Source: a virus. Taken from it: 64,000 bases of DNA. Made by a program: the position numbers and the translations under genes. A model generated the notes under the pieces. The model was not told the origin of the DNA. It ran no database searches and saw nothing but the letters and a program-made list of their open reading frames with translations. This document shows positions 18,432-56,591 of this stretch, one piece after another. The DNA is taken from the IMG/VR virus record IMGVR_UViG_3300044701_002822, positions 12,828 to 76,827 of that record; one strand, given 5' to 3'. The first letter of the stretch is position 1, and each line of letters opens with the position of its first letter.

Positions 18432-18598
18432 TTAACTAAATCATCAATACCATCAAAATAATCTATACCAACAATATCTACAATTTGCTGATTTTCTTTT
18501 AAGGTTTTTAATTTTCTCCACAGTACAACATTTGCCCGTTGTATTTCCATAAACTTTTCTAAATAAAATTTGTCGGTTATTTCAGTTTTATTATTCAT
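18428..18598 (-). CDS. Small hypothetical protein (~56 aa)
   Basis: Fills the gap between coupled genes; the ATG at 18598 overlaps the upstream stop (ATGAATAA). Confidence 0.6.
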   Translation of the reverse strand: MNNKTEITDKFYLEKFMEIQRANVVLWRKLKTLKENQQIVDIVGIDYFDGIDDLVK

Positions 18599-20584: not shown

Positions 20585-21254
20585 CGAATATTTCCTCATA
20601 TATGTAATTCATATTACTTTTGCCCCAAAGAACATGTGTGCTTAAACTACGTTTAAACATTTTTTCTAAATCGATTAATCCGTTATTGCGTGGTCCAGTT
20701 TCGTCTAATCTAAATCTTGCACTATCATGAACTATTGCTTCCATGTATCGTTCTTCTATGTATGGACGATCAATCGGAACAACTCCATACCAGTCTATTG
20801 CTCTCATATTACCGTGATTGTCAATGTAATGGCAATGAGGATACATTGTTAATTTATAGTAACCTGTATTATATTGATCCGTTACAATATTTTTTATCAT
20901 TTCAAACCAACGCAAATCTAGCATGAAATGTCGATATATTGTATGATTACAATTATTATTATACCACTTTATAAAAATACGTTTGCGTTGATGATCTATA
21001 TCGATAACTTCTGGTGCATAAGGTTTATTAGCAAACAGTTCTATATACTTTACTTCTTGTTCGAAAAAATAATCGCACACTTCTTTTGTGTACAAAGGTC
21101 TTTCGCCGTCTTGCCGCTGGTACTTGTTTTGCCAATCATAATTTGCACAAAACGTTTTTCCGTCTAAACTTATCAACGGTTCATACGTCTGTTGAGCCAT
21201 ACCTATATTACTGTCGTGGTATTTTAGATATGGTATCCAATTACTGATATTCAT
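20577..21254 (-). CDS. Atypical protein-kinase-like-fold protein
   Basis: EVKYIE...APEVIDID...IFIKW...GYYKLTMYPHCHY...RAIDWYG; start set at the ATG at 21254. Confidence 0.55.
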   Translation of the reverse strand: MNISNWIPYLKYHDSNIGMAQQTYEPLISLDGKTFCANYDWQNKYQRQDGERPLYTKEVCDYFFEQEVKYIELFANKPYAPEVIDIDHQRKRIFIKWYNNNCNHTIYRHFMLDLRWFEMIKNIVTDQYNTGYYKLTMYPHCHYIDNHGNMRAIDWYGVVPIDRPYIEERYMEAIVHDSARFRLDETGPRNNGLIDLEKMFKRSLSTHVLWGKSNMNYIYEEIFDA

Positions 21255-27613: not shown

Positions 27614-27642
27614 TATTTATATGCGTATATTATCTATAAATA
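27614..27642. promoter_or_regulatory. Back-to-back T4-like late promoters (TATAAATA on each strand)
   Basis: Minus TATAAATA (27621-27614)-N5-ATG 27608; plus TATAAATA (27635-27642)-N5-ATG 27648. Confidence 0.8.
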
Positions 27643-27647
27643 TTGTT

Positions 27648-28394
27648 ATGGAAACAGCAGACAGATTTTTTCATCAAAATAATACATTCAAATACAAGCT
27701 AAACGGATTACCTAGTTTAACAATGAACGATGAAGAAATTGCATTGTGGATACTGCAAGGCGGTGCTGGTGCATGGCTTGAATTAGATTTACATGTTGAC
27801 CATAAAAGTTTTTTTGAAGAATACAATTGTGTCAAAGACATGTTTGTTACGCACAGAGATGGAGCAACAGGCGAAGGTACGCATGACGGATGGGAAGCAT
27901 GTGCTTTGCATGGTATTGAGTGGGACAAAACCAATGTGTGGCAAACCTATGATTATGAAACAGAACCCGATTATGCATGGACCAAAGCCGGCGTCAAATG
28001 TATAGAAATACAAAAGTTTTTTAATTCTTTACCTTGCCAACAGTTAGCTAGAGTAAGATTTATGAAATTAAAAAGCAAAGGTTGGATTTCACCTCACAAC
28101 GACAAACCCGATTCGGATATAGACTGGAATATGATTTTTGAACATCCATTGCCGATTAATATTGCAATAGAGCATCCACAGGATTGTCATATGGTTGTAA
28201 AAGACAACGGAGTAGTACCATTTGTCAATGGAAAAGCGTTTCTGGTCAATATTTTTAATGAACACTCAGTAATAAATTATAGTAATAAAGACAGGATACA
28301 CGTAATTGGACATTTGTTAGTAGGTAATCGCAAAAACGAATACTGTTCAATGCTGGCCAACAGCTACAGGAAACAATATGTATTACAAGGGTAA
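27648..28394 (+). CDS. Asp/Asn beta-hydroxylase-like Fe(II)/2OG oxygenase
   Basis: RVRFMKLKSKGWISPHND...INIAI...HSVIN...RIHVI; start set at the ATG at 27648. Confidence 0.85.
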   Translation: METADRFFHQNNTFKYKLNGLPSLTMNDEEIALWILQGGAGAWLELDLHVDHKSFFEEYNCVKDMFVTHRDGATGEGTHDGWEACALHGIEWDKTNVWQTYDYETEPDYAWTKAGVKCIEIQKFFNSLPCQQLARVRFMKLKSKGWISPHNDKPDSDIDWNMIFEHPLPINIAIEHPQDCHMVVKDNGVVPFVNGKAFLVNIFNEHSVINYSNKDRIHVIGHLLVGNRKNEYCSMLANSYRKQYVLQG

Positions 28395-30619: not shown

Positions 30620-31560
30620 TTTTTAATTCCTATTTCTCCAGTACACCCACAAATTTCTTTTGTGCAAGTAACAGGTTTTATCACAGGAGAAAAACTAAAG
30701 TTAGGATCATTTATATTATAAGGTTTATCAAAAAGTTTTTGCTGACAGTTACCTGTAAGTAAGCCATTGGTTATTTTTAAATGATCAACTCCTAAATTGC
30801 AACTCCATCCACGAAAATAATTTAAATTATTTCTAGTAATCCAACTGTCGCTGTTTGTAACAACTTTAGTATTGTCTGCTTGTGTAATTGTTATTTCAGT
30901 TTGCGGCTTACGAGAGGTATGTTCAAACCATTCTGTATCAGGGTATCGTTTAATTGGATCATCAAAGAATTTTAACTGTTCTATTTTATACTTGTGTATT
31001 CCATCAAAGTGTACTACCTTAGCAATTATTGGCCATGCATATACACTGGTTTGAAAATAATCTACTAGGCTAACACATTTTTCAAATGCTGCTGGATCCA
31101 TCAATACATCAACATTTACAAATACACCTGCTTGATATAAAAAATCAGCAAGTTTAGCAATTTTACCCTGCTTGGCATATTCATGATGAACACTAATATT
31201 AACATGATCTAAAACTCTGCCAGCCTTGGTCCACCAAATAATTCCTCTAGTGGCATTTGTACTAATTTCTAAAATGCAATTGTAATTCTGTTTAAGCCAT
31301 TCGATTAATGGTAAAAAATCATCCCATAGTGTAGGCTCTCCACCTACAAAAAAAATGTTAAAAATTTCTTTACCATTATTTTTGTAATGATCTAAAACTT
31401 TTTTAAGATTTTTCTTAACTGTTTCTAATTCTGGCCAAGGCAAATCGCCTTCGTTACTTCCCGGAAAGCAGTAATTACACTTTTGATTACAAGTGTTTCC
31501 TAACATGTATTCTATTCGCAGTACATTATCAGGCTGATTGTTTTCAACTTTAATAATCAT
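30604..31560 (-). CDS. Radical SAM protein with C-terminal Cys cluster
   Basis: GNTCNQKCNYC; GGEP; FRGWSC...GNC...CTKEICGC. Confidence 0.92.
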   Translation of the reverse strand: MIIKVENNQPDNVLRIEYMLGNTCNQKCNYCFPGSNEGDLPWPELETVKKNLKKVLDHYKNNGKEIFNIFFVGGEPTLWDDFLPLIEWLKQNYNCILEISTNATRGIIWWTKAGRVLDHVNISVHHEYAKQGKIAKLADFLYQAGVFVNVDVLMDPAAFEKCVSLVDYFQTSVYAWPIIAKVVHFDGIHKYKIEQLKFFDDPIKRYPDTEWFEHTSRKPQTEITITQADNTKVVTNSDSWITRNNLNYFRGWSCNLGVDHLKITNGLLTGNCQQKLFDKPYNINDPNFSFSPVIKPVTCTKEICGCTGEIGIKKCLSQ

Positions 31561-32942
31561 AGTAAATGAGCCAACTCCGGAAAAACTTTTTTAGCTTCTA
31601 GTCCACGAATTTTGTCCAGTTTATTTACGTATTCTTTAAATCCAGATAAAAGATGGCTGTTGTCGGCACTGTCCATGTGATTAAGTATTGCTTCCCAACG
31701 TCTCCATCCATACGGATTATGTTCCCAAAAGTCTGTGTCAGTTGTATACCAGTTATACAGCCAACCTTTAAAACTCATAAATGTATCTCTTATTTCTTCT
31801 TTATCTTCTTTAGGAAGCATTTGTATGCTTAAAAATGTAGGAATATAAAGCAAGTGCATGTTGATTAAGCCGCCGCCGGCTGCAACACCTCTTATAACTT
31901 CTGTGTTTACCTTTTTAAAATTGCTGGTTACTTTCCAGTGTATAAAATCTGGTAAGTGTTTGATATTAAAAATTTGCACGGCTGTTGCAATACTAGGACG
32001 TATGTTTTCAGGTGTATTATCTAACATATGCAGATTGCGTTCAACAGTTTCCCAGTCTGTGGGATATCTTATATAGTTATTGCGAGAACCTGCTGCATCT
32101 ATACTAACTCCAACTTTGACTTTACCGAAATATTTCCATAGATTTATTAAATCTTCATCAATTAATATTCCGTTGGTGTTGTATCTTAATGTTATATTAG
32201 TGCTGAATCCTTGTCTTACAATTTCTTCTATAAACTTTTTATGCTCTTTAATCATAAGAGGTTCACCGCCAGCAAAATAAACTTCACGTAGATTTGGTAT
32301 TTGTTTATAAAGTTGATTCCAAAATTCTTCGCTTTCGTGCCATTTATTGTTAAAGGAATCTTTGTCCCATTGCATCTGATTTTTTACAGTTGCATTTTCA
32401 AGGTTAGGATATAATTCTTTCCAATCTTTTACCCACTTGCTACTGTCATGTGGACTGCACATCACGCACTTAATGTTACAAGTGTGTCCTAGTCTTAGGT
32501 CAAGATAAACTAACTTTTCAGGAACTCTGCCATCAGCCTTGGTGTTATTTAATAGCGTTTTAAGATTTTGTCCTCGTTCCATCCACGATGTTGTTTCCCA
32601 CATGCGTTTGCTAACTATGCCTTTGTCTTCTTCTTCGAAGCATTTAGTACAACTTGCAGGAACTTTTCCTTCCATCATAGTTTTACGGACATTTCTCATG
32701 TAGTCGCTGTTCCATGCCTCCATAGGTGTAGTGTTTGCAAAATTGATATGTTCACCTATATCGTTTTTTACAATGCCTATTGTGTGATCGTTACCAGCAC
32801 CGCTGGCGTTGGCACTACAGCACAATCTCATATCACCATTGGGTCTAGTTGCCATATGTAACCACGGCAAAGCACAAAATGTAGGAGTTGCTTGATCAGA
32901 AATTGTTTCTTGCCATGTTTCTAAATATTTTGCTACAGTCAT
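31557..32942 (-). CDS. Radical SAM protein with N-terminal twitch domain
   Basis: FCALPW...LCC...CTKC, then TCNIKCVMC; AGGEP; YNTN. Confidence 0.93.
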   Translation of the reverse strand: MTVAKYLETWQETISDQATPTFCALPWLHMATRPNGDMRLCCSANASGAGNDHTIGIVKNDIGEHINFANTTPMEAWNSDYMRNVRKTMMEGKVPASCTKCFEEEDKGIVSKRMWETTSWMERGQNLKTLLNNTKADGRVPEKLVYLDLRLGHTCNIKCVMCSPHDSSKWVKDWKELYPNLENATVKNQMQWDKDSFNNKWHESEEFWNQLYKQIPNLREVYFAGGEPLMIKEHKKFIEEIVRQGFSTNITLRYNTNGILIDEDLINLWKYFGKVKVGVSIDAAGSRNNYIRYPTDWETVERNLHMLDNTPENIRPSIATAVQIFNIKHLPDFIHWKVTSNFKKVNTEVIRGVAAGGGLINMHLLYIPTFLSIQMLPKEDKEEIRDTFMSFKGWLYNWYTTDTDFWEHNPYGWRRWEAILNHMDSADNSHLLSGFKEYVNKLDKIRGLEAKKVFPELAHLL

Positions 32943-33550
32943 TTGTATCCTATTACTAGAAACCTATTGTACAAAGGTAATTCTAATGTATCTGTTTTTA
33001 ATATATTACTTAGCCCGCTATGTGTAGCAAAATTTTCTACAGTATCAAAACACCGTATATGTTCAGGTAATGCATAGTAATTGTTATTTTGTAAAACAAT
33101 TAAACTGTCGTTTGGAACATTTTTTAGCCAGCGGTTGTATTTGTCTTGTGCTACATGTTCAGTGCTAGTATTGATAACAATGTTAGGAGTTTTATTGTAA
33201 ACGTAATACTCCATATCTTGTATAACTTGTAAAAATCTACCTTCAATTTCTTGACGTTTGCAGATATCACTAGCAGGACCTGCTGTTTCACTTTCAATGT
33301 CTACATTTTCTATACGATTAATACTTATACCACTGTTAAACAGTAAACTTGCTAGTACACCATTCCAGCCGCCATGTATTACAATATCAAGTGGATTTCC
33401 GTTAACAGGTATATAAGGATAAAGATTTTTTATCAGCCACTCTTTACTGCGAAGTTGTCCTTTCCAAAAACTTTCTAAAACGCCATAGTGATTTTCACTG
33501 TTACGCACAGCGTCCATCCAATACGCTACGTCTTCTAAGCTTATGTACAC
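32939..33550 (-). CDS. Class I SAM-dependent methyltransferase-like protein
   Basis: GQLRSKEWL...IHGGWNG...NVDIE...VINTSTEH; paralog of 872..1780. Confidence 0.75.
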   Translation of the reverse strand: MYISLEDVAYWMDAVRNSENHYGVLESFWKGQLRSKEWLIKNLYPYIPVNGNPLDIVIHGGWNGVLASLLFNSGISINRIENVDIESETAGPASDICKRQEIEGRFLQVIQDMEYYVYNKTPNIVINTSTEHVAQDKYNRWLKNVPNDSLIVLQNNNYYALPEHIRCFDTVENFATHSGLSNILKTDTLELPLYNRFLVIGYK

Positions 33551-34683
33551 AACACTTCTCTTAGCGGAATGTCTAAATTTTTAATGCCAAATAAAAACTT
33601 TTTTCTATTTAGAATTCTTCTTTTTTGTGTTATTAGGTTTAGCTGTTGTATGTTGTTAGTTGACATTACTTTATGCATACTTTCTATAGCTTTAAAAACA
33701 CGAACACTATCATCGGCAGTATCGTAACTATGATCAACAATATCATCAAACATGTCAAACCCTAATAATCGTAATCTTTGTACTAACCCTCTTGGTCCTA
33801 TTATAACAGGTATTTGTCCTGCTGTAAAGACTTTCCATGTTTTTTCAGTAATAAATGTTTCATCTATAAAATTGTACTCGGGCAAATAATATGTTTCTGT
33901 AACCAAATTTATAAGTGTATTATCATAGATTTTTGGATGTAAATCATTTGGTAAACTTTTGTTTGATAAATCATATGTGTCAACAACTAGAGGAAGTTTT
34001 TTATTTGTTATACTTACTTTTTGTTTTATAATATTTTGATATTCTGTGGGTATTTCGGGCAGGCGAGATAAAATTGAGTTTTCAAAATTGTCGTCACTAT
34101 CAAATTCATAACTACGATCGTTAGCTGTTACAATACCATCCTCTAAAATGTCAACAACGTCTAAGTAAGCAATTGTAAATAATCTATGCAATCTTGGGCG
34201 ATTATTCATACAGCAATACCAAATATTTTTTTGATACTTTACTGGAATTTCGCAATCATTTACCCAATCACGCATCCGGTGATACCAAAGATTGTGACTC
34301 CACACATAAAAAGCACTTGGCACTTTTTTCTTTTCCAACCAATGGTCATATACTTTTTGTGATTCTAAGTGACCTGTAGCATAAATTATTTTTTTGTGTA
34401 AAGTGTGTTTGTTTACAAATTCGTGTACATCACTAAAGCTAAGATAAGCATACCCCTCTTCGGTGTCATCAAGGACAATATAAAAGTGTTCACGCTGTCT
34501 TGCTAAGTCTATTAACCAAGTGGGTACAGGTTCGGATGCGTTTCTAAATCTTACAAAATAAAAATAGAATCCGTTTGGATTGTTTTGCCAAACGGATAAC
34601 TCTTGTTGTATTAGTCCAATCTCATCGAGATTGTTTATTCCATTGTAATTTGTATAACAATTTACTTGATTATTTGTTTCCAA
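33541..34683 (-). CDS. Glycosyltransferase-like protein ('TEK', GT10-like family)
   Basis: NNRPRLHR...NLVTET...FITEKTWK...P...GFDMFDDIVDHSYD. Confidence 0.65.
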   Translation of the reverse strand: METNNQVNCYTNYNGINNLDEIGLIQQELSVWQNNPNGFYFYFVRFRNASEPVPTWLIDLARQREHFYIVLDDTEEGYAYLSFSDVHEFVNKHTLHKKIIYATGHLESQKVYDHWLEKKKVPSAFYVWSHNLWYHRMRDWVNDCEIPVKYQKNIWYCCMNNRPRLHRLFTIAYLDVVDILEDGIVTANDRSYEFDSDDNFENSILSRLPEIPTEYQNIIKQKVSITNKKLPLVVDTYDLSNKSLPNDLHPKIYDNTLINLVTETYYLPEYNFIDETFITEKTWKVFTAGQIPVIIGPRGLVQRLRLLGFDMFDDIVDHSYDTADDSVRVFKAIESMHKVMSTNNIQQLNLITQKRRILNRKKFLFGIKNLDIPLREVLCT

Positions 34684-35573
34684 TGATGGATAGTCCTATC
34701 AATACCTTCTTCATAAGAAATTTTAGGTGCCCAACCAGTTTTGCTGGTTAAAAGGTTATGGTTACTATTCAACCAATAAATTTCCCCATGTCTTGGCGGC
34801 TTAGTATTCCAATTAACTTGACCATTCCATTGTAGCTGTTCAGCAATGTAGTTGGCACAGTCTTTGATTTTTCTAGGATCATCTGGGCCAATAGTGTAAA
34901 AGTTTCCTTTACACGCAGCTCTATTTTCAATAACAGCCATCCATGCGTCTAACAAGTCGTCAATGTATATAAAGTTTCTATAAGGCTCAGCATATCCTAA
35001 GTTACAAACATCACCCTTTAACATCTGGCTAATAATTTGTTCGGTTACAAAATAATTGTTGTCTTTACGACCATAGCTGTTGGTTTGTCTAAAACTTGCA
35101 AATTCTAATCCGTATGCTCTTGAAGCGTACTCTAAATATTTTTCACAACCATATTTTGCTACAGCATAAGGTGCATTAGGGTTAGGTTGAGTATGCTCGT
35201 CAAATGCTACGCTGTTTACATAAGTTCCAGTTTCCTCTACTTCATCACTGATAGGTTGCCATCCATAAACTTCCATTGTGCTAGCAAACACAAAGTAAGG
35301 CATTGGATCTAGCTGTCTACAAGCTTCGATAAGATTTACAGTTCCTACATAATTTACTTCACTAAACTCAATTTGTTCATAGAAACTTTCTTGAACTTCA
35401 GTTCGTGCAGCAAGATGAACAATTATATCAGGTTTTGCTTGTGCAACTTCAGCCTTTACATCACTGTGTTTTTTTAGATCACTTTTTAACTCATGTACTT
35501 CTCCCATGGCCTTTAAACGCGGCAACAAATGTTGACCTATAAATCCGCTACTTCCTGTTATTAATATTTTCAT
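34662..35573 (-). CDS. NAD-dependent nucleotide-sugar epimerase/dehydratase (extended SDR)
   Basis: ILITGSSGFIG, HLAA, ASTMEVYG, PYAVAK (YxxxK), RNFIYIDD. Confidence 0.93.
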   Translation of the reverse strand: MKILITGSSGFIGQHLLPRLKAMGEVHELKSDLKKHSDVKAEVAQAKPDIIVHLAARTEVQESFYEQIEFSEVNYVGTVNLIEACRQLDPMPYFVFASTMEVYGWQPISDEVEETGTYVNSVAFDEHTQPNPNAPYAVAKYGCEKYLEYASRAYGLEFASFRQTNSYGRKDNNYFVTEQIISQMLKGDVCNLGYAEPYRNFIYIDDLLDAWMAVIENRAACKGNFYTIGPDDPRKIKDCANYIAEQLQWNGQVNWNTKPPRHGEIYWLNSNHNLLTSKTGWAPKISYEEGIDRTIHHWKQIIK

Positions 35574-36651
35574 AATGCTCTCTCAAAAATTTAAATTTGT
35601 TTTGATAACCTTCGGTACTTGCTATATTTAAAAATTCTAAATGATTATGTACGTGAAAATGGTTAGAATTTTTTGGAAGCAATTTGTTTATGCGTTTGCG
35701 AGTTTTTTTATTTTCCACTATAGACAACATATTCAACCAGTTATGATGTACTTTAGACTGTACAGCATCTCTCAAATACTGAATGTTATAAGTAGTTAAT
35801 TTTTTAATTTGCTGCATGTACATATCGCATCTTATTTCGTCGTCTTCAATTTCGTCAAAACTGTAGTCAATTATGTCATCAAAAATTTCAAAACCTAAAC
35901 TTTTCATATATGCGTTTGCCAATGGATGTCCGTAAATAACAAATGGTCTTCTGTGGTAGATAGGAATATATGTTTTTTCTGTAATGAATTGAACGTCAGT
36001 TGCTGATTCGCAAATTACACTGAATACACTATTTTTAAAATGTTGTGGCGGTCTTAGTATGTCTGCTATTCCACCCTCTGGCCTTGTAAATTCTTCGTCA
36101 AACTTTAGTGACTCCGGCGACCACCATTTAAATTTGTAACTATCAAATGTTCTATTTTCAAAATTATGAAAACTGATATAACCTTTTTCAAACAATTGTT
36201 CTTTATACATATAATCTAAAAACATTTGTCTGTGAGGATGAGCTCTACCATTCATACTAACAAAGTGTTTTGTTGGGTTAGCATTTATTCCATAAGGATT
36301 TAAATCGTGGGTTAGTGCATGACAGATAACTTGATGTGCAAACCAAGTTTCCCATGGCACTAAATTTTCTGAAAACATATTTAAGTCATGCCTGTATCCA
36401 AATTCGTTTGATATATTGTTACCAACTAAACACGTAAGTTCTACATTATAGTATTTGCAAAATCCTAGAAATATGTCAAAACTTTGCTGGTCTTGAAACC
36501 AAGGTTGAAAATTATATTCTGACGGCATCAAAAGTATTATTTTGTATATTTTTTTATTTTTTACAGCATCAACTAAAATTAAGTAATCTCGATGATCAAA
36601 TCCCCATACGTCACAAAAATATACTCCATCTATTATTCTTCCGAAATTCAT
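35548..36651 (-). CDS. Glycosyltransferase-like protein ('TEK', GT10-like family)
   Basis: MNGRAHPHR...VICES...FITEKTYIP...PF...LGFEIFDDIIDYSFD. Confidence 0.65.
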   Translation of the reverse strand: MNFGRIIDGVYFCDVWGFDHRDYLILVDAVKNKKIYKIILLMPSEYNFQPWFQDQQSFDIFLGFCKYYNVELTCLVGNNISNEFGYRHDLNMFSENLVPWETWFAHQVICHALTHDLNPYGINANPTKHFVSMNGRAHPHRQMFLDYMYKEQLFEKGYISFHNFENRTFDSYKFKWWSPESLKFDEEFTRPEGGIADILRPPQHFKNSVFSVICESATDVQFITEKTYIPIYHRRPFVIYGHPLANAYMKSLGFEIFDDIIDYSFDEIEDDEIRCDMYMQQIKKLTTYNIQYLRDAVQSKVHHNWLNMLSIVENKKTRKRINKLLPKNSNHFHVHNHLEFLNIASTEGYQNKFKFLREHYENINNRK

Positions 36652-36670
36652 TTTGTAATTGGCATCCTTT

Positions 36671-36678
36671 TATAAATA
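36671..36678 (+). promoter_or_regulatory. T4-like late promoter TATAAATA
   Basis: TATAAATA-tttt-ATG (36683). Confidence 0.7.
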
Positions 36679-36682
36679 TTTT

Positions 36683-37279
36683 ATGTTTGATATTGTGTCT
36701 CAGTTTGAAGAAAAAATTGCAGATTTTTATGGTGCACCATATGCAGTAGCAACTGATTGTTGCACACATGCTATCGAACTTTGTTTAAGATACACAAAAT
36801 CAAACAATTTAACTATTCCTACTCATACATACTTATCGATTCCTATGACAGCAATGAAATTGAATTTGAACTGGCAGTGGAATGATTCGATCTGGGAAAA
36901 TTACTATTATATTACAGAAAATATAATTGATGCTGCGGTTTTGTGGAAACCCAATAGTTACATACCAAATACATATATGTGTGTGAGTTTTCAATTTAAA
37001 AAACATCTGAGCTTAGGAAGAGGCGGTATTATACTTTTAGATAATTTGCAAGCCAAAAATGATTTAATAAAATTAAGTTATGACGGACGTCACAGAGATG
37101 CACCATGGCCGGCTCAATCTATAGATAGTTTAGGCTATCATTATTACATGACTCCTGAGACTGCACAATTAGGTTTAAACAAATTAGAAGATGCAATTAT
37201 CAAGCAACCTAAAATATGGGGCACAAACGATTATCCCGATTTAAGAACTATGCCGGTTTTTGATACCAAACTTCAATAA
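36683..37279 (+). CDS. DegT/DnrJ/EryC1/StrS-family PLP aminotransferase, minimal (~198 aa)
   Basis: FEEKIADFYGAPYAVATDCCTHAIEL, IDAA, SFQFKKHLSLGRGG (PLP Lys), GYHYYM; start set at the ATG at 36683. Confidence 0.88.
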   Translation: MFDIVSQFEEKIADFYGAPYAVATDCCTHAIELCLRYTKSNNLTIPTHTYLSIPMTAMKLNLNWQWNDSIWENYYYITENIIDAAVLWKPNSYIPNTYMCVSFQFKKHLSLGRGGIILLDNLQAKNDLIKLSYDGRHRDAPWPAQSIDSLGYHYYMTPETAQLGLNKLEDAIIKQPKIWGTNDYPDLRTMPVFDTKLQ

Positions 37280-38066
37280 TGTTATAGTGATCAATACAAT
37301 TATCAAACACTGTTTTATATCGTATATCTACTAATCTATTAAAGTACTCTATAGTTTTTGGAACATTGGGTTTATAAACTGTTTTTACATGATTTTCAAC
37401 ACAGGTTTGTAATTCGTTAAATAATTCAACTGTTGTGGATTTTAATGTTAATCCTAATTTTGGATATATCCAATCTTTTACAATATTCATATGCCCTTTT
37501 ATATCAGGATGACAATCAGGAATCACTCCAAATGGTTTGTTTGTTTCGGTTAATTCAAATGTATAAACAGGAATTTCAGGCAACATAGCTGTGTAAAAAT
37601 CTACTAATTCTTTTGATTTTTTACTTACATTTGTTATAAATGCCTCGTTGGTTGCTAATTCAAATGCACTGCCTTGCCAAACAATGTTTTTATGAAATAG
37701 GTCATTGGCAATCTTTATTGCTGTAGCATTTTTTACTATATCGTTGTCGTAACTCCAATATCGTTTAATATAGTAATTACTGTATTCTGGATTATTTGAA
37801 TTGAATACACTACCAGCAGCTACCCATCGCCGATCTCTTACACGATCTTCTCGACTCCAACTTGTCCATAATATAAAAATTTTATCATCATCTGTAAATT
37901 TTAATTTGTTGTTAGCTTCAATCATTCTATGCAAGATGCCAACATTACCCAACCCTGCAATGCCAAAGTTATGGTATTCAACTCCTTGATCGTAACCTAT
38001 AACTTTAGCCCATGTTGGCCACCCATATTGAGTAAAACTACAACCAAAAAATATTAATCTGCTCAT
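37248..38066 (-). CDS. SGNH/GDSL-like hydrolase/acyltransferase
   Basis: FFGCSFT (block I Ser), GIAGLGN, WT...R, DCHP (DxH). Confidence 0.72.
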   Translation of the reverse strand: MSRLIFFGCSFTQYGWPTWAKVIGYDQGVEYHNFGIAGLGNVGILHRMIEANNKLKFTDDDKIFILWTSWSREDRVRDRRWVAAGSVFNSNNPEYSNYYIKRYWSYDNDIVKNATAIKIANDLFHKNIVWQGSAFELATNEAFITNVSKKSKELVDFYTAMLPEIPVYTFELTETNKPFGVIPDCHPDIKGHMNIVKDWIYPKLGLTLKSTTVELFNELQTCVENHVKTVYKPNVPKTIEYFNRLVDIRYKTVFDNCIDHYNIIEVWYQKPA

Positions 38067-38075
38067 CCAAAACCT

Positions 38076-38099
38076 TAAATAATGTTATGAATATTTATA
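38076..38099. promoter_or_regulatory. Overlapping divergent late-type promoters
   Basis: Plus TAAATA (38076-38081)-N5-ATG 38087; minus TATAAATA (38099-38092) upstream of the ATG at 38066. Confidence 0.62.
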
Positions 38100-39061
38100 G
38101 TAAAAACGAATGGGATCCTCTAAAAAAGGTAATAGTTGGTGTTGCTGACTATTGTCGTATTCCTGAAATGGATAAAAGTTTACGAGTAATAAATTATGCT
38201 GACCGTAAGGATGTCAGCGATGTTGTGTCCGGATTATATCCCGATCAAGTTGTTGAAGAAAGCAACGAAGACTTAGAAACCTTTGTAAAATTCTTAGAAG
38301 GTGAAAGTGTTGAAGTTGTAAGACCCAATCGCTCACCATCAGTTGAATATTACAACTACTGTCCTAGAGATACTGTATTTGTTCACGGAAACAGATTGCT
38401 TGCAACTCCTATGAGTTTACGAGCAAGAAGTAGCGAGTTTCATCATATGCTCCCTCATATAGCAGGTGTAGAACTTAGCCCGAGATATAAAGACGACGAC
38501 TTGTATGATGAAACCTGTGTAGGTGATCCAGATCGTCTTGCTTTAACTGAAGTAGCACCTTGCTTCGATGCTGCTAATACAATACGTGCAAATGATGATA
38601 TTTTGTATTTGGTAAGCAACAGTGGCAACAAAGCAGGTGCTGCTTATTTACAGGAGTGGGTAGGAAATCCAAAAGTTCATATACTTGAAAATGTATACAG
38701 TTATATGCACATAGATAGCACTATTGCATTTTTACGTGAAGGACTATTACTTGCTAATCCTAGTAGAATCAAAAGCCGTGATGCATTGCCAGGACCCTTC
38801 AAAAACTGGGATATTATTTGGGCACCAGAACCGATAGATATGGGTCATTACCCCGGATATTGTAATGCAAGCACCTGGATAAATGTTAACTTGTTTAGTG
38901 TTAATCCTAATCTAGTTGCACTAGAGGAACATCAAGAACCTACACGCAAGGCGTTAGAAGCACATGGCATCGAATGTGCTATGTTGCCACTTAGACATTC
39001 TAGAACCTTAGGCGGATGCTTTCATTGTTGCACATTAGACCTTGTGCGTGAAGTCGGGTAG
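38087..39061 (+). CDS. Amidinotransferase (glycine/inosamine-phosphate amidinotransferase family)
   Basis: NEWDPLKKVIVG, CPRD, FDAAN, HIDST, GGCFHCCT (Asp/His/Cys catalytic residues). Confidence 0.93.
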   Translation: MNIYSKNEWDPLKKVIVGVADYCRIPEMDKSLRVINYADRKDVSDVVSGLYPDQVVEESNEDLETFVKFLEGESVEVVRPNRSPSVEYYNYCPRDTVFVHGNRLLATPMSLRARSSEFHHMLPHIAGVELSPRYKDDDLYDETCVGDPDRLALTEVAPCFDAANTIRANDDILYLVSNSGNKAGAAYLQEWVGNPKVHILENVYSYMHIDSTIAFLREGLLLANPSRIKSRDALPGPFKNWDIIWAPEPIDMGHYPGYCNASTWINVNLFSVNPNLVALEEHQEPTRKALEAHGIECAMLPLRHSRTLGGCFHCCTLDLVREVG

Positions 39062-39790
39062 TTTTAACAACGAGGAAATAATTTCAGCAGTTTCTTTATG
39101 AAACTTCGGACCATCGTGTTGTCCATCTCTGGCTTTGTCTCTGGCTAACGGATGTATGTGCCAAATCTTATATCTACTACGCTGTAGTTCTTCTTCTAAA
39201 TCATCATCCCAAGTGAAATTAAGAACAGGCACGCCCAACATCTTCCAGCTATTGTTCACTGCTTCAAACCAAGACCATACATTGAGACTAAGATCTCCTG
39301 TGTCTGTGATATAACGTTTTCCCCACCATCTGCCGTCATGAGTAGCTGTTTCGCTCATATCTTCAAATCTTATTCCGTAGTTTTCTTTAAATCCAAAACT
39401 CTTTCTGTGTTTTTGAGGCCATTGAATTATCACAATTTTTGGTTTAGGCAGTTGTGAATTTATCCACATAAGATTATTTAAATAAACAAAGTCAATACCT
39501 GTGGCTTGTTTAGCAGCATTGTAGTAATCTATACCAAGTGTTTTAGCAACTTGATCTATCCAAATTTGTTCTACATTTAAACCAACACCTTCGGTATAAC
39601 TACAGCCATAACTTAAAATAAAATCATTATCAAGAGTTTCAATTTCTTTTGTTCTATAGCCAAGACTGTTGAATTTATATTGTATTGGCCAACGAGGATT
39701 GATAACTCTATCAGTACTAAAAATAGCAGAAGTTTTATTCATATATGAATAATCGATTATTATTGGTGCATCAGGTTTAATCAAGTACAT
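39035..39790 (-). CDS. SGNH/GDSL-like protein
   Basis: YKFNSLGYR...YGCSYTEGVGL...QWP...ARDGQHDG. Confidence 0.72.
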   Translation of the reverse strand: MYLIKPDAPIIIDYSYMNKTSAIFSTDRVINPRWPIQYKFNSLGYRTKEIETLDNDFILSYGCSYTEGVGLNVEQIWIDQVAKTLGIDYYNAAKQATGIDFVYLNNLMWINSQLPKPKIVIIQWPQKHRKSFGFKENYGIRFEDMSETATHDGRWWGKRYITDTGDLSLNVWSWFEAVNNSWKMLGVPVLNFTWDDDLEEELQRSRYKIWHIHPLARDKARDGQHDGPKFHKETAEIISSLLKLPDFTHKV

Positions 39791-39801: not shown

Positions 39802-39829
39802 TATAAATACAACATATTTAAAGTTGGAG
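39802..39829. promoter_or_regulatory. Overlapping divergent late-type promoters plus RBS
   Basis: Plus TATAAATA 39802-39809 and GGAG 39826-39829 before GTG 39835; minus TAAATA 39820-39815 before ATG 39790. Confidence 0.68.
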
Positions 39830-39834: not shown

Positions 39835-41154
39835 GTGAGTTATCAAATTTGGTACTTGTCTATATATTTTAGACCAAAAAACAAACTTTTACCAGAGTTA
39901 ATTAAAAAAGACGGTACTAGAACACCCTTAATGGACATTGGTAAAATAGAAATGTTAATGCTAATGATAAAAGAAAGTTTTCTTAGAAATGAGGACAGAC
40001 CGGTATTAATTTTTAATGGCACACATTCTATAGAACATCTAGATAAGTTGTTTATAACACCAAGACATAAGAAATTATTACAAGAAGAAGAGTGTGCTTT
40101 TTATTTTTTCGAGCCTCTTACACATTACATTTGTAGAGAAGGACGTGATCCAAATTTAGAACCTCATATTTTAAGATGCAATAACGATCCTTACGAAATT
40201 GCCAATGTTCGCTGCTTAGAGTTAGACAGTTTGCAAGCATGGGTAGAAAAATACAACATAAAAAATTTGCATGTTTACTGTACAGATTATAAAAGCTGTG
40301 AATATTACAAAGATCTTTATCCAAATTTAGTTCTCAAAGAAATGGATTTTTTTGTAAGTTGGTACTGTACTAGATATATGGCTCAAATAATTAGAGGTGA
40401 TAGTTTAGGCCATTTAGAAAAAGAATATATGAAGCCCGAAAACATTACAAAAAAGTTTTGGAGCGGGGCTTGGCGATATGATCCTAGCAGACATTTTATT
40501 ACTGCATATCTTGCTGGAAAAGATTTAATAAAAGAAAATAATGTAAGTTTTTATTTTAAACTTCCTAACTCAGAATTTAAAAGACGTATGTGGTTTGGAT
40601 GGAAAGAGTTTTCATTAAAATTTCCTCGTATGGCCGAGATATTACTAGAAGGCAATACAAAATTACAAGAACTAGTTCCACTAAGTATAGAAATTGACAA
40701 CCCAGCGGCTTTAGAGGAACGTGCTCAAGATCCCGAAGCAGACAGCGATGGCAAAAACACAAGAAAAAATCACGATCCTGTCAATTCTTATTTAGAATCA
40801 TTTTGTGCAATTGTACAAGAAACACGAGTTACACAACCGTGGGCAAACATCAGCGAAAAAACTCTTAACGCAATGAAAAATTATAGACCATTTGTAATTG
40901 CAGGAGCACCAGGAACAATAAAAATGTTGAAAGACATGGGCTTCAAAACGTTCGATCGTTGGTGGGACGAAAGCTACGACGATGTAGTTGGAAACAAAGA
41001 ACGTTTGGTAAAATTGTGTGAAACAATTGATTACATAAACAATTTTAGCATAGAAGAAATGAGAGAAATATACAAAGAGATGACTCCCATACTAAAACAC
41101 AACGTAGAAAATTTTGCTAAAATTGAAGACTGGTACAACAATCGGAATATTTAA
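39835..41154 (+). CDS. Glycosyltransferase-like protein ('TEK', GT10-like family)
   Basis: WRYDPSR...AIVQET...ISEKTLNAM...PFVIAG...MGFKTFDRWWDESYD. Confidence 0.65.
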   Translation: MSYQIWYLSIYFRPKNKLLPELIKKDGTRTPLMDIGKIEMLMLMIKESFLRNEDRPVLIFNGTHSIEHLDKLFITPRHKKLLQEEECAFYFFEPLTHYICREGRDPNLEPHILRCNNDPYEIANVRCLELDSLQAWVEKYNIKNLHVYCTDYKSCEYYKDLYPNLVLKEMDFFVSWYCTRYMAQIIRGDSLGHLEKEYMKPENITKKFWSGAWRYDPSRHFITAYLAGKDLIKENNVSFYFKLPNSEFKRRMWFGWKEFSLKFPRMAEILLEGNTKLQELVPLSIEIDNPAALEERAQDPEADSDGKNTRKNHDPVNSYLESFCAIVQETRVTQPWANISEKTLNAMKNYRPFVIAGAPGTIKMLKDMGFKTFDRWWDESYDDVVGNKERLVKLCETIDYINNFSIEEMREIYKEMTPILKHNVENFAKIEDWYNNRNI

Positions 41155-41906
41155 ACAAAGTTATCTTCAAACAACTTGTTTGCCCAATATTCGTGAGCTT
41201 GTTCCTTATGATGATGTAATAGTTGTCCTTCAATGTTGAATCCATTGTTTAGACAATTTTCATAAAAACTTTGTTTAATATTTGTAAACCCTTTAAAATT
41301 AGAAGGATCAACTCTACTTCTATAATACAAATAACGATCGTTACTGTTGCACTCTTCAAGAGCATTTCTAAAAATGTAAGGTATTTGATGTACCTTCAGC
41401 ATATTTTGCAAATTAATAATATTCATATATCTGTTGATATCCCAATGAACATCGCTAAAAAAGTTAGACTTTGCAATATGTTGTGCCATCCACATTTCGT
41501 GTTCAGGTACAAAACTTTGATATCCAGGATGTACATGTCCAACATTTTCGTCAGGCACAAACGGAATAAATTGCCAAAAAATTTCATTTTTAATTTTTGG
41601 CATGCCTGTATGGAAAAATTCTGTTCTAGCACTGCCAGTCCAATGAATCAAAAACAAACTGTTTTTTGCTTTGTGAATATTATCTTGCAACCAAAAATTA
41701 CTGGTTCTAAAAATGTAATCATTGCTAGCACCAGGCATTGCAATGTTGGTATAGTCAACACCTAAACGTCTTGCAAGTTTAGCACCAAAGCATTGCAGTC
41801 TGTTGTATTCAGTATCTCCAAGTCCGCTACCTTCAATTTCACTGCCTGCTGTATGACTGCACCCGTTTATAAAGATGTGTTCGAAGTTGTATTTTTTAAT
41901 TATCAT
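41151..41906 (-). CDS. SGNH/GDSL-like protein
   Basis: FINGCSHTAG, NIAMPGASN, HWT...R, C-terminal HH. Confidence 0.72.
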   Translation of the reverse strand: MIIKKYNFEHIFINGCSHTAGSEIEGSGLGDTEYNRLQCFGAKLARRLGVDYTNIAMPGASNDYIFRTSNFWLQDNIHKAKNSLFLIHWTGSARTEFFHTGMPKIKNEIFWQFIPFVPDENVGHVHPGYQSFVPEHEMWMAQHIAKSNFFSDVHWDINRYMNIINLQNMLKVHQIPYIFRNALEECNSNDRYLYYRSRVDPSNFKGFTNIKQSFYENCLNNGFNIEGQLLHHHKEQAHEYWANKLFEDNFV

Positions 41907-42532
41907 ATTATCTCAAAAGGCCATTCGCCCGAATTTACTTGTAACAATAATGCATACACTTGTTTCATATCAACTAAACCGTCTGTATTATATTGTTCAA
42001 ATCTCCAAATATCCATTTTACCAAGAATAGGTGTTAACATGTTCATGGGTAAAAAACTATTTGCATTAGACACACATCCATAAAAATCATGTACTCTTAT
42101 ATTGTTATTTAGGTCAACATAGGTGGTATGAGGATAGTAATTGATTTTTAAAACAGTTTTGCTTAATTCAGCAAGTATGTTTTTGATTTCGTTGTGATGT
42201 TCGTCAATTGTTTTTTTATCTTCTAGAATATGATTTAAACTGGTATCATACCATTTAAAAAATACACGTCTACTAGTTTTGTCAATGTCAATTAAATCGG
42301 GTGCAAATGTTTTGTTTTGAAAATGTTCAAGCCATCTTATTTCATTATCGAAATAAAATTGAGCTATATTGTCTGTGTATAAAGTTCTATCAAAAAAGTA
42401 TCTTTTATCAATATTAAAATCCATGCAAAAAACATTTCGGTCAGGACTAATACGTGGAACATAAACAAGGTTAGCACGTAATTTACCACCTTGTTTATAT
42501 TTGTAAAAAATGTCCCAGGACGAAATGTCCAT
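41903..42532 (-). CDS. Atypical protein-kinase-like-fold protein
   Basis: NEIRWL...APDLIDID...VFFKW...KINYYPHTTY...VHDFYG; start set at the ATG at 42532 (TAATG overlap). Confidence 0.55.
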   Translation of the reverse strand: MDISSWDIFYKYKQGGKLRANLVYVPRISPDRNVFCMDFNIDKRYFFDRTLYTDNIAQFYFDNEIRWLEHFQNKTFAPDLIDIDKTSRRVFFKWYDTSLNHILEDKKTIDEHHNEIKNILAELSKTVLKINYYPHTTYVDLNNNIRVHDFYGCVSNANSFLPMNMLTPILGKMDIWRFEQYNTDGLVDMKQVYALLLQVNSGEWPFEII

Positions 42533-44658
42533 TACCATTTGCCTTTATTAATATATCTGTAATTAAAACTAAAATCAATAGTATCATTTAGTTTTTGTTC
42601 TTCTTCTAGCAAATCAGTAAAATCTTGATCGCCTCTACCTGTTTCCAAATCCCAATCTGGCTTGGCAATACGTCTTGCACGTTTAGCTGTGTTACTCATC
42701 ATACGCGAATAATCTTGTGCAAAAAACGGACCTTTACGGCCTTCGGGCGGAGGTAAACGATTGTCAAAAGGATTGTCTATTTGTTTAAAATCCCAACTGA
42801 AATCTGCATCCCAGTTTCCTGCATCATTAATACTAAACTTGTAAACAGCATTTAACATTCCTGGGCCAAATTGACTGCCAAATTCTTTTAAATCAATATC
42901 AGGATTAAATCTTATTTCGGCGTCATAACCTCCTCTTGTACGCCAAAGCATACGAAAGAAAGGCCACATCTCATTTACAAGTGTATCTGCAAATGGACTA
43001 ATACCAGGTTGAATAATGTTGTAGTCAAACTGTTCGTACTCGTCAATTTCTTTAATTGTATCAAGATTGTGCAAGTTGATTATGTAGTGTTCACGTTTAA
43101 GGCTATCACGAATAGGATATCCAAACGGCGTTTCTGTACATCCGCTTATAAGATCTAAAAACATATGAAATGCTTTTACACGATGCATAACATGAGTACC
43201 ACCTTTTGTAAAGTCATTGGTAATCCAATGACCTTGGTACTTGTGATAACTTAGATTGAATTTGTGCGGATTTTGGCCCATAATAGTTTCAGGACCTTGT
43301 CCGTATCCAACACCTGCTCCAACGTTATTGATATTCATATTACGCATACGCCACAAGAATGTCATGCTGTCTGCAAAGTCTTTGTGATCTTCTGTAGGAA
43401 ATCCTACAATCCAATTGGTTGCAGCATAAATGCCAACTTTTTTGCCGTCGCGGAAGTTTTGTTCCATTTCTTCAACAGTAACACCTTTGTGCATGTCATC
43501 AAGTACTTTTTGACTTCCACTTTCAATACCATAGTTAAGCATGATACAACCGCCTGCTTTGAGATCTTTGAAATATTCAAGATCCATACGGCCATCACAT
43601 CGTGCATAACCTGTCCAATGTATTTTTAGACCCTTGGCATCTACTGCTTTACAAAATGCTCGTAATTCATTTACGTTACCATTTACAAGACTATCAATGA
43701 ACCAAAAGATATCTGTACCTTTGTTGTAGTACAACCATTCAACTTCTTCAATTAAGTCAACTGCTTGACGTTGACGGTATTTCCAGAAGTGAGTTTCTTC
43801 GCAGAATGTACATTTTGCAGTACATCCTCTACTAAATTCAGTGTTAACGCCATTTGGAATTTCGTATTGACTAAAATCAATACTTTCATAATCCGGCATA
43901 GGCATGCTGTTGATATTGATCTTTTGATTGAATTCTTGTTCAATGAATTGAGGTTCGTCGTGTTCTTTACCTAATTCAATATCAGCAAGAATTTTTAATA
44001 TTGCTGCTTCACCTTCTCCATTTACAACATAATCGTAATAAGGATGACGTTGAAACCAACTTTTTTGTGCATTACTGCCGCCGACTGCGATCTTAATATC
44101 TGGACGCAGCTCTTTGATACGTTGTGCCATCCATTTTGTAGGTTCTTCACTAATATAGTATACTGTGAATCCTACAACTTGAGGATTAAGTGCAAGAATT
44201 TCATGTACTGCTTCTTCAAGCATGGGTTCAAGTACAGGATGAATATCTCTCATGTAACTTTCGCCTTCCCAATGCCAACTTGCACTAGGATCCCACAATC
44301 TAAATGGAAACAGTTTTAACGGACGCCATTCGTGTTGATACTTGTTGTATGCACGAACATTAAGATCTAAAATGTGTGTTTCATAACCGGCAGTTTTTGC
44401 AACACCACTTAGACGTGCTAAATTAAAAGGTGGAAACTGTGGTGCCCATTCAGGACATAAGACTAATACTAATTTTGTATTGCGTCTTTTATAATCTACA
44501 TATACCGGAGTTAGATTTTTTTCTATTAATGCAGTAGGGCGAGCATAAGGCTTAATTGCCTCTAGCATATTAAGATGTTTATCATCAGCAGCATTAGCAG
44601 AAATCTTATCAGGTATTTCAGGTTGTGCTTTTGCTAATCCTTTTAGATTAAAGTCCAT
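42532..44658 (-). CDS. Cobalamin (B12)-binding radical SAM protein
   Basis: PPFNLARL...DLN...VGFTVY...VGG...GEGE; FSRGCTAKCTFC; GIESGSQKVL; IVGFPTE. Confidence 0.93.
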   Translation of the reverse strand: MDFNLKGLAKAQPEIPDKISANAADDKHLNMLEAIKPYARPTALIEKNLTPVYVDYKRRNTKLVLVLCPEWAPQFPPFNLARLSGVAKTAGYETHILDLNVRAYNKYQHEWRPLKLFPFRLWDPSASWHWEGESYMRDIHPVLEPMLEEAVHEILALNPQVVGFTVYYISEEPTKWMAQRIKELRPDIKIAVGGSNAQKSWFQRHPYYDYVVNGEGEAAILKILADIELGKEHDEPQFIEQEFNQKININSMPMPDYESIDFSQYEIPNGVNTEFSRGCTAKCTFCEETHFWKYRQRQAVDLIEEVEWLYYNKGTDIFWFIDSLVNGNVNELRAFCKAVDAKGLKIHWTGYARCDGRMDLEYFKDLKAGGCIMLNYGIESGSQKVLDDMHKGVTVEEMEQNFRDGKKVGIYAATNWIVGFPTEDHKDFADSMTFLWRMRNMNINNVGAGVGYGQGPETIMGQNPHKFNLSYHKYQGHWITNDFTKGGTHVMHRVKAFHMFLDLISGCTETPFGYPIRDSLKREHYIINLHNLDTIKEIDEYEQFDYNIIQPGISPFADTLVNEMWPFFRMLWRTRGGYDAEIRFNPDIDLKEFGSQFGPGMLNAVYKFSINDAGNWDADFSWDFKQIDNPFDNRLPPPEGRKGPFFAQDYSRMMSNTAKRARRIAKPDWDLETGRGDQDFTDLLEEEQKLNDTIDFSFNYRYINKGKW

Positions 44659-45622
44659 GTATTCTCTCTTTGGGTATAATAATGTCTGTTCCGCAATGAC
44701 AGTGTTCTTTATTACATATAACAGGTTTTAAATCAAATGTCAAGTTTTCATCTAATATGTTGCCGTGGCGATTTCCTACACCGCAACTTGCACTGCTAAT
44801 TTGTCCAATAGGATTTATAAAAAGTGCATCATCTACATAACATTTCCACCCACTAAAAAAGTTTTGTCTGTCAGCAATAATTTTATTACTGTTTGTGGAT
44901 TCTATTACTCCATTGTCATAATGACTAATACTAATAGCACTGTTTTCTCTATAAGGTTTTGGTAAACGCATCATAGTTTCAAATCTTGCGTTTTCTAGAA
45001 ACTCTACTTTTGCAGGATCATCATATTTCCACGGTCCAGCATTCACACTCATTTCATCAAACAGAGGTGTCCATTCTAAGTTATAGTTAGGCACTTCGTT
45101 ACGTACACGTTCACCAAACTCGGCTACTTCCCAAAAACGTTCTTCGTGCATCAACATCTTGGTGCAAAGATAATCTACCTTATCGCAAAGAAAACGTGCA
45201 TTTTCAATATAACGATCTTTTTTACTAAATTCAACATGAAAACTTGCAACAATGTCATCAAATAACTTGTAGTGTTCTTCCCAATAACGCAATGGTCGTG
45301 ACAGGTTTGTATTAACTGCCACTGTTAAACTATTTCCTAGCCAACCTTTTAGATGCTGTGTTAATGGAATAAAGTTTTCCCAATGCGTAGGCTCGCCGCC
45401 ACTGTAAAATATTTTAAAATGTTTGTAGCCACGATCTTTGTATTGTTGGAAAATATTAGTAACATTTCTAATATAAACATCTAAGTTACTGTTGTTACGA
45501 CTGTCACCAGACCAGTTTCCTGGGTTACAATAGCTGCACTGAAAATTGCAAAAATTGTTTACTTGCCAAGTAATAGTTGCATACGGTTCTGCAATAGGAG
45601 TAATTTTTACTAACTTAGACAT
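44648..45622 (-). CDS. Radical SAM protein with C-terminal Cys cluster
   Basis: ITWQVNNFCNFQCSYC; SGGEP; FSGWKC...ASC...CNKEHCHC. Confidence 0.92.
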   Translation of the reverse strand: MSKLVKITPIAEPYATITWQVNNFCNFQCSYCNPGNWSGDSRNNSNLDVYIRNVTNIFQQYKDRGYKHFKIFYSGGEPTHWENFIPLTQHLKGWLGNSLTVAVNTNLSRPLRYWEEHYKLFDDIVASFHVEFSKKDRYIENARFLCDKVDYLCTKMLMHEERFWEVAEFGERVRNEVPNYNLEWTPLFDEMSVNAGPWKYDDPAKVEFLENARFETMMRLPKPYRENSAISISHYDNGVIESTNSNKIIADRQNFFSGWKCYVDDALFINPIGQISSASCGVGNRHGNILDENLTFDLKPVICNKEHCHCGTDIIIPKERIHGL

Positions 45623-56567: not shown

Positions 56568-56591
56568 TTTTAGTTTACCCTTATTGCAATG

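Follow-up and report, generated by a model that had tools for sequence, protein, structure and literature searches.

A conserved viral pairing of a half-size DegT-type protein with a StrB1-related amidinotransferase, and its possible role in guanidino sugar synthesis

An amidinotransferase and a half-size DegT-type protein

We analyzed a 64,000-nucleotide stretch of viral DNA (hereafter, the window), which comprises bases 12828-76827 of the 76.8-kb virus record IMGVR_UViG_3300044701_002822. We focused on a predicted L-arginine-dependent amidinotransferase of a StrB1-related viral clade (38087-39061, plus strand) and on a half-size protein of the DegT/DnrJ/EryC1/StrS type, a putative pyridoxal phosphate (PLP) protein that we call miniDegT (36683-37279, plus strand). 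The two genes recur close together in viral loci and would belong to an amino-sugar tailoring module. An earlier note on this DNA had placed an epimerase/dehydratase, a DegT aminotransferase and an amidinotransferase among glycosyltransferase-like and SGNH genes, and this arrangement was borne out by the listing of open reading frames (ORFs), the family scans and the PDB matches.

The amidinotransferase (324 amino acids, aa) has no Pfam or NCBIfam match, and PHROGs yield one unannotated PHROG; therefore, its assignment comes from PDB sequence matches. The best solved relative is StrB1 (1bwd), matched with E 1.9e-62 across residues 6-321, and further matches include HsvA (1e-43) and AGAT/SxtG (1e-30). 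In the HMMER alignment, D95, D161, H208, D210 and C314 align to StrB1 D108, D179, H227, D229 and C332, i.e., the catalytic triad C314/H208/D161 and the substrate-binding D95 and D210 are retained. All five residues are invariant in homolog alignment A6; in the wider alignments A4 and A5, D95 and H208 appear again, as does D161 or its neighbors F160/A162. The earlier note had raised the prospect of clustering with arginine deiminase-type hydrolases; the full-length matches were transferases only, and no clustering with hydrolase-type pentein enzymes was seen.

In a maximum likelihood tree of 124 sequences, the amidinotransferase of the window belongs to a clade of 29 rows (SH-aLRT 98) whose members are all viral-contig or unnamed metagenome sequences. 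As to the comparison with StrB1 and glycine amidinotransferases that the earlier note had proposed, the window enzyme falls outside the StrB1-like clade, and it also lies outside a large and well-supported clade, putatively of the glycine-amidinotransferase type, in which most proteins have 340-400 aa. The StrB1-like anchor P0139 (1bwd E 6e-132) lies outside the viral clade. The enzyme is therefore a true amidinotransferase that is nearest to StrB1 among solved structures and is not a StrB1 ortholog.

Homologs are abundant: over 6000 were found at E <= 1e-10 in a set of 5.8 billion proteins, and 853 clusters at E <= 0.001 emerged when the representatives at 50% identity were searched exhaustively. 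When 185,579 species genomes were scanned for the pattern with the single protein, only relatives of about 40% identity were recovered (Pseudomonas, Streptomyces, Pseudonocardia), and none of the other window genes adjoin these. Since the nearest cellular amidinotransferases are so distant and have no neighbors in common with the window, the module appears to be virus-specific. One amidinotransferase 78% identical to that of the window (P0034) is encoded on a 374-kb contig. A divergent clade of 37% identity has other neighbors: at L057:7291-9765, the amidinotransferase gene is bordered by those for a GTP cyclohydrolase I and a phosphoribosyltransferase, which hints that the enzyme may have another use there.

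The miniDegT ORF opens at 36659, and ATG 36683 is the likely start, giving a protein of 198 aa. It scores 57.2 bits against PF01041 (cut-off 19.8; E 2e-15) in two stretches, which cover profile positions ~25-109 and 179-256 of 360, with positions ~110-178 and 257-360 missing; the two-domain architecture of ~360-400 aa typical of DegT proteins is, accordingly, not seen. Residues T28, D83, S102 and K107 are invariant in 22 homologs of 195-226 aa, and, because these homologs align end to end, the short form does not appear to be a broken gene. K107 is the PLP Schiff-base lysine of the SFxxxK...GxGG motif (SFQFKK...GRGG in the window), and D83, in IIDAA, is by motif alignment the probable Asp that pairs with the PLP pyridine nitrogen. 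At least 8000 sequence clusters of ~195-aa miniDegT proteins were found, many of them from Tara and other marine samples.

The AlphaFold2 model of miniDegT has a pLDDT of 94.9, and its top Foldseek matches are all sugar aminotransferases, GDP-perosamine synthase being the first, with ArnB, BtrR, AHBA synthase and PglE also present (E ~1e-9 to 1e-10, TMq 0.63-0.73). The low TMt values (0.32-0.40) are due to the targets (364-439 aa) being twice as long as miniDegT. As modeled, miniDegT would be the PLP-binding core of the DegT family minus the C-terminal domain, and such a half-size protein is of enzymological interest by itself, offering a pared-down scaffold for a PLP aminotransferase. A miniDegT 60% identical to that of the window is encoded by a 642-kb uncultured phage (LR756502.1, 461770-462345), and Flavobacterium phages have a version of ~30% identity that adjoins a mannosyltransferase.

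Recurrence of the pair and its nucleotide-sugar context

We collected 59 viral loci with amidinotransferase homologs of 36-85% identity and labeled their ORFs against the window. The miniDegT gene lies no more than 8 kb from the amidinotransferase gene in 53 of the 59, down to an amidinotransferase identity of 36%; therefore, the clustering of the two genes is not a matter of chance. Two of the six exceptions are contig ends, and the other four represent one lineage (L039), in which miniDegT is found on the same contig ~18 kb away.

In loci far from the window, the genes follow a same-strand order of miniDegT, amidinotransferase, a ~165-aa protein and a GT-B glycosyltransferase, with overlapping stops and starts. 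The ~165-aa family has no Pfam match and carries HxD...H...R, the signature of small Fe/2-oxoglutarate (2OG) oxygenases. It was found in all 28 loci outside the close clade of the window (e.g., L049:8969-9466), in many of them directly downstream of the amidinotransferase gene, and in L048 it is fused to the GT-B protein; only distant paralogs are encoded in the window itself (13123-13608 and 20015-20599, both on the minus strand). A gene of the UDP-glucose dehydrogenase (UGDH) family adjoins the module in 13 amidinotransferase loci (PF03721/PF00984; TIGR03026, 141-160 bits). In three loci (L030, L033 and L034), a fusion of a cytidylyltransferase-like domain with a PMI-type cupin (L033:5317-6075, minus strand, 252 aa) stands beside the miniDegT/amidinotransferase operon and an ortholog of the dehydrogenase/reductase gene of the window described below. 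We regard it as very probable that the amidinotransferase can carry out catalysis and has a functional link to miniDegT.

In the reverse search, miniDegT was found on at least 599 viral contigs, of which we examined the best 80 (it should be noted that L042 and L087, which entered the study as separate loci, are the same contig). An amidinotransferase gene is present within 8 kb in 27 of these best 80 loci and is missing in 53. A canonical GDP-mannose 4,6-dehydratase (GMD) is found instead in 37 of the 80 (L081-L152), and in 36 cases a gap of 0-150 nt separates its start from the preceding miniDegT stop codon; one copy, L111:7989-9562, matches the PDB GMDs with E 5e-93. In other miniDegT loci, a UGDH-family gene follows directly downstream. 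Because miniDegT elsewhere stands directly beside GMD or UGDH-family genes, the context is that of nucleotide-sugar rather than cyclitol chemistry: the miniDegT family consistently occurs in nucleotide-sugar chemistry, and GDP-perosamine-type synthesis is the clearest case. In the miniDegT tree, the GMD-linked proteins constitute one clade (SH-aLRT 97) that is nested among amidinotransferase- and UGDH-linked ones. The combination of miniDegT and GMD in phage loci free of the amidinotransferase is common in viral contigs and probably represents a minimal GDP-perosamine-type pathway.

Neighboring genes and the surrounding island

The dehydrogenase/reductase gene of the window (34662-35573, minus strand) encodes a 303-aa extended short-chain dehydrogenase/reductase (SDR), predicted to act on a nucleotide sugar, with the motifs GxxGxxG, YAVAK and ASTMEVYG (PF01370, 1e-40; PF16363, GDP_Man_Dehyd, 1e-36). 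The top NCBIfam match is dTDP-glucose 4,6-dehydratase (111 bits, below the cut-off), and the top PDB matches are a GalE-like epimerase (3e-26), then tyvelose epimerase and RmlB. GSSGFIG, YAVAK and the T-M-E of ASTMEVYG are invariant in 14 SDR orthologs. The motif reads T-M-E, not T-D-E or T-S-E, i.e., the Glu of dehydratases and decarboxylases is present and the Asp of RmlB is replaced by Met. Scores are alike against epimerases, 4,6-dehydratases and UDP-GlcA decarboxylase, and every NCBIfam equivalog score is far below its cut-off. This type of SDR is confined to the clade of the window, the three loci with the cupin fusion (52% identity) and distant copies in L059 and L060.

Three GT-B paralogs surround these genes. 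The first (33541-34683, minus strand, 380 aa) is GT10-like (PF00852, E 2.4e-4, 21.3 bits, under the cut-off of 23.9) and is present in 51 of the 59 loci. The second (35548-36651, minus strand, 367 aa) has no Pfam or PDB sequence match, and hhalign links it to the family of the third with a probability of 99.7% (E 2e-25). A match of this 367-aa protein to AstB (N-succinylarginine dihydrolase) at E 0.096 was dropped, given the clear GT-B paralogy. The third (39835-41154, plus strand, 439 aa, GTG start) is the gene most often found near the amidinotransferase (in 54 of the 59 loci), narrowly above miniDegT itself. Its AlphaFold2 model (pLDDT 92.8) matches GT-B structures in Foldseek without exception, and VIA-align gives T4 beta-glucosyltransferase (Z 11.5), H. 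pylori alpha1,3-fucosyltransferase (Z 10.7), and EXT1, FUT11, FUT9 and FUT13 (Z 8-10, the three FUT proteins at Z 8-9). All three paralogs have the C-terminal motif E(T/S)..(I/F)(T/S)EK...P(F/V)VI.G...GF..FD...D.SYD, which resembles the GT10 signature. GT10 enzymes use a GDP-6-deoxyhexose donor, and GT10-like transferases would suit a GDP-linked 6-deoxy-amino sugar.

Three further genes on the minus strand complete the neighborhood. A virus-only 272-aa protein (37248-38066) carries an N-terminal SGNH-like GCSFT motif, is related to DUF6071 clusters and has no Pfam, NCBIfam or PHROG match. Another protein (39035-39790, 251 aa) has a GCSYTEG motif and may be SGNH-like as well; it is present in 42 of the 59 loci and is likewise without a match in the Pfam, NCBIfam and PHROG scans; pairwise comparison of these two proteins revealed no significant similarity. 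A DUF6071 protein of 251 aa (41151-41906; PF19547, E 5.5e-13) is found in 30 of the 59 loci.

The module is embedded in a long block of tailoring enzymes, with 14 radical SAM genes within 11988-49498 (~37 kb). Four of the products (31557-32942, 45615-46904, 46897-48180 and 48116-49498) score 303-401 bits on NF033640 (cut-off 170), the N-terminal-twitch radical SAM subfamily, and Pfam places a SPASM/twitch domain N-terminal to the radical SAM core in all four. Another gene (42532-44658, minus strand) encodes a 708-aa B12-binding radical SAM protein, the best matches of which, all below the cut-off, are a C-methyltransferase of ribosomally synthesized and post-translationally modified peptides, PhpK and BchE-type proteins; it is kept beside the module in several loci. 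Also in the island are a cold-shock DNA/RNA-binding domain joined to a 2OG-Fe(II) oxygenase domain (18591-19469, minus strand; PF00313 + PF13640) and an Asp/Asn beta-hydroxylase-like protein (27621-28394, plus strand; PF05118, E 7e-8).

The phage is a large, marine, T4-like one. CheckV estimates the source record as 21% complete, implying a genome of ~350 kb; the GC content of the window is ~34%, and no tRNA genes were detected in it. A T4-type Gp23 capsid protein is encoded on related contigs that bear the same module. Fibre-like genes lie at 55-64 kb of the window, near the module. Three successive fibre-like proteins (55113-60524, minus strand) have a common ~80-aa N-terminal module (phrog_14394/15511) and differing C-terminal parts, which suggests exchangeable receptor-binding tips.

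Possible pathway, alternatives and known systems

We put at about even strength the proposition that these genes constitute a conserved, virus-specific amino-sugar tailoring module that makes a guanidino sugar. In such a pathway, a host- or phage-made nucleotide sugar would be oxidized to a keto sugar, here by the 303-aa SDR and in other lineages by the UGDH-family dehydrogenase, possibly aided by the small Fe/2OG oxygenase. The keto group would then be transaminated to an amine by miniDegT. The amidinotransferase would take the amidino group of L-arginine onto C314 (with H208 and D161) and pass it to the amine, yielding a guanidino deoxy-sugar and ornithine, and the three GT10-like paralogs would transfer the sugar or sugars to an acceptor. 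This order of steps, and the miniDegT product as the amidino acceptor, are what we infer from the gene set. The acceptor sugar is most likely nucleotide-activated or glycan-bound and not a phosphorylated cyclitol; candidates would be a GDP-4-amino-4,6-dideoxyhexose (perosamine-like) and a UDP-4-amino-pentose or uronate.

Some features may bear on timing. TATAAATA, a T4 late-promoter-like motif, is located at 36671-36678 (plus strand), ending 4 nt before the miniDegT ATG, and at 39802-39809 (plus strand), where it is followed by a GGAG ribosome-binding site ahead of the GTG of the 439-aa glycosyltransferase. It also stands just upstream of the starts at 27608/27621 and 55086. TAAATA is found 5' of the amidinotransferase start. 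With 7 copies of TATAAATA in the window and 12 expected by chance, the count is not above chance, so that only the placement is suggestive and the motif is just consistent with T4-type late transcription. A divergent TATAAATA pair is present at 27614 and 27635, by the Asp/Asn beta-hydroxylase-like gene. The module may be expressed late, and, judging by motif placement and the neighboring fibre genes, a virion or late cell-surface target is plausible; the final acceptor could be a virion fibre, the host envelope or another structure. The full scenario, i.e., that abundant marine T4-like phages use miniDegT and the viral amidinotransferase clade to make an N-amidinated, strongly cationic deoxy-sugar that is installed late on the virion (e.g., on tail fibres) or on the host envelope, is proposed tentatively, with distinctly less confidence than the guanidino sugar itself.

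Several observations weigh against a guanidino sugar. First, amidinotransferases accept widely varying amines, namely glycine, lysine, polyamines, aminoketones and inosamine phosphate; therefore, the acceptor is not readable from the sequence. Reviews bear out the breadth of acceptors in the family (PMC12371840, PMC4887976). Second, miniDegT lacks the C-terminal domain and some 70 profile positions of canonical DegT proteins, and is thus only a putative aminotransferase. Third, the window SDR does not appear to be a canonical 4,6-dehydratase (GMD or RmlB), nor ArnA, and the SDR is absent from many amidinotransferase loci. Fourth, the GMD-linked miniDegTs form their own clade and are never near an amidinotransferase, so that the GMD link informs on the substrate class only and not on the exact substrate here. 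Fifth, when the phage's own record and four related fragments (~650 kb in total) were searched for gene families in all six frames, the control genomes were detected but no NDP-sugar pyrophosphorylase (NTP_transferase) was. Finally, the island is dominated by radical SAM enzymes, the putative substrates of which could be peptides or proteins.

The last of these points is shared by the strongest competing explanation, which we consider unlikely although deserving of attention: the amidinotransferase would belong to the tailoring island rich in radical SAM and 2OG enzymes and act on a non-sugar amine, either a free amino acid or polyamine (giving homoarginine, guanidinoacetate or an amidino-polyamine) or the side chain of a Lys or Orn residue in a peptide or virion protein, and miniDegT would serve a separate sugar step. 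The characterized relatives take glycine, lysine, polyamines and aminoketones (PMC4887976, PMC12371840), the island holds, in addition to the 14 radical SAM genes, the B12 radical SAM C-methyltransferase-like and Asp/Asn hydroxylase-like genes, and miniDegT often occurs without the amidinotransferase, as in the 53 of the best 80 loci noted above. The converse, however, is not observed: the amidinotransferase is almost never without a nearby miniDegT, even the L039 lineage having one on the same contig, and the two genes form a tight operon with a GT-B gene, whereas no precursor peptide was identified.

The streptidine-like alternative, in which the DegT protein would transaminate an inosose that is then phosphorylated and amidinated (StsC/StrB1-like steps of streptomycin biosynthesis), is improbable. 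It draws on StrB1 being the closest solved relative of the amidinotransferase, on BtrR, a cyclitol aminotransferase, being among the structural matches of miniDegT, and on the many radical SAM genes nearby. Some aminocyclitol pathways do include a dehydrogenase of the twitch radical SAM type (BtrN). Nevertheless, the amidinotransferase lies outside the StrB1-like clade, the conserved neighbors are nucleotide-sugar enzymes and GT-B transferases, and the ~650 kb of own and related fragmentary records contain no DHQS-like cyclase, no myo-inositol-phosphate synthase (MIPS), no APH-type kinase and no GFO/IDH dehydrogenase above the cut-off (one sub-threshold match was found in G004). The earlier note had inferred a guanidino-sugar or guanidino-cyclitol building block; with no cyclitol synthase, inositol dehydrogenase or kinase in these fragments, and with nucleotide sugars as the context, we do not retain the cyclitol version. 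Neither did Pfam and NCBIfam scans of the ORFs at 10-55 kb detect any kinase family, including the kinase-fold gene that had been named as a possible source of the phosphorylation step. What survives is the conversion of keto to amino to guanidino groups on a sugar: this logic is supported because the gene coupling is conserved, with DegT- and StrB1-related partners that often have overlapping stops and starts, and it is the streptidine, or phosphocyclitol, version of it that falls away.

DNA hypermodification, in which the GT-B paralogs would glycosylate modified bases and place an amino or guanidino sugar on phage DNA, is the least probable reading and can hardly be upheld: the 439-aa glycosyltransferase has T4 beta-glucosyltransferase as its first-ranked structural match (with the fucosyltransferase within ~1 Z unit), the phage is T4-like by the Gp23 of related contigs, and viral glycosyltransferases are reported to put diverse glycans on DNA (Pyle et al. 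2024, as cited in PMC12619734), but the ThyA/dCMP-hydroxymethylase family is absent from the five fragments and from the complete 244-kb genome of phage S-SCSM2R, the sequence motifs are closer to GT10 than to T4 beta-glucosyltransferase, and the module adjoins fibre genes, not replication genes.

A guanidino sugar thus remains the reading that we develop, and its parts differ in novelty. The enzyme families are known, and the proteins described here are members or variants of them; novelty lies in the way the genes are combined, in the aminotransferase of half the usual size and in the amidinotransferase clade of viruses. A guanidino sugar decoration is not yet described for any virus, and our literature search yielded no publication that describes guanidino sugars in glycans. 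If the reading is correct, glycobiology would gain a new, permanently cationic building block, and widespread ocean phages would be running a multi-step sugar chemistry that is otherwise tied to antibiotic pathways; the decoration could alter how the phages adsorb, which hosts they infect or how well they withstand host defences. The function would matter ecologically because both proteins, with the numbers of amidinotransferase homologs and miniDegT clusters given above, are very common in marine metagenomes.

Among known systems, StrB1 of Streptomyces griseus (PDB 1BWD), the L-arginine:inosamine-phosphate amidinotransferase, is homologous to the phage protein over the full length. Both belong to a compact length class that lacks the N-terminal extension seen in AGAT, and the catalytic Cys/His/Asp and the arginine-binding Asp align. 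The differences are that the phage protein belongs to a separate, well-supported viral/metagenome clade and that no neighboring str/sts-type cyclitol genes were found in its own record and the four related fragments. The enzymes acting on glycine (AGAT/CyrA), lysine (AmtA), polyamines (HsvA) and an aminoketone (SxtG) have in common with it the fold and the ping-pong mechanism via a covalent Cys-amidino intermediate, as is known for the family (PMC12371840, PMC4887976); however, they belong to other clades and other gene contexts, and the matches to AGAT, HsvA and SxtG are weaker (E 1e-30 to 1e-43, compared to 1e-62 for StrB1).

The GDP-perosamine pathway and the ArnA/ArnB pathway to UDP-Ara4N follow a like logic, in that the NDP-4-keto sugar made by an SDR receives its amino group from a DegT enzyme. 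The top structural matches of miniDegT include GDP-perosamine synthase and ArnB; the sister miniDegT clade lies directly beside canonical GMD, as in the former pathway, and UGDH-family genes accompany other amidinotransferase loci, as in the latter. Unlike these systems, the phage module has a half-size DegT-type protein, an SDR that does not appear to be a canonical GMD, RmlB or ArnA, and an added amidinotransferase step without a counterpart there.

The nearest parallel is provided by the cultured T4-like cyanophage Synechococcus phage S-SCSM2R, in which the same module (ORF305-ORF309) is flanked by glycosyltransferases, with an amidinotransferase 69% identical and a miniDegT 56% identical to those of the window; the genes come in another order, and the cyanophage module has neither the SDR nor the SGNH-like genes seen in the window. 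The five ORFs were labeled ‘AHBA synthase’, radical SAM, glycosyltransferase, 2OG oxygenase and ‘inosamine amidinotransferase’ (PMC12801897). The authors of that study, which reports no assays, described the AHBA-synthase-like, inosamine amidinotransferase and radical SAM genes as “antibiotic synthesis genes” new to cyanophages and proposed competition with other microbes as their role; the virion proteome holds a second, different amidinotransferase, ORF266 (PMC12801897). In our analysis, an MPI-type cupin and an RmlC-like epimerase are encoded a few kb from the S-SCSM2R module. Since a cultured phage bears the module, the question of its product is directly testable.

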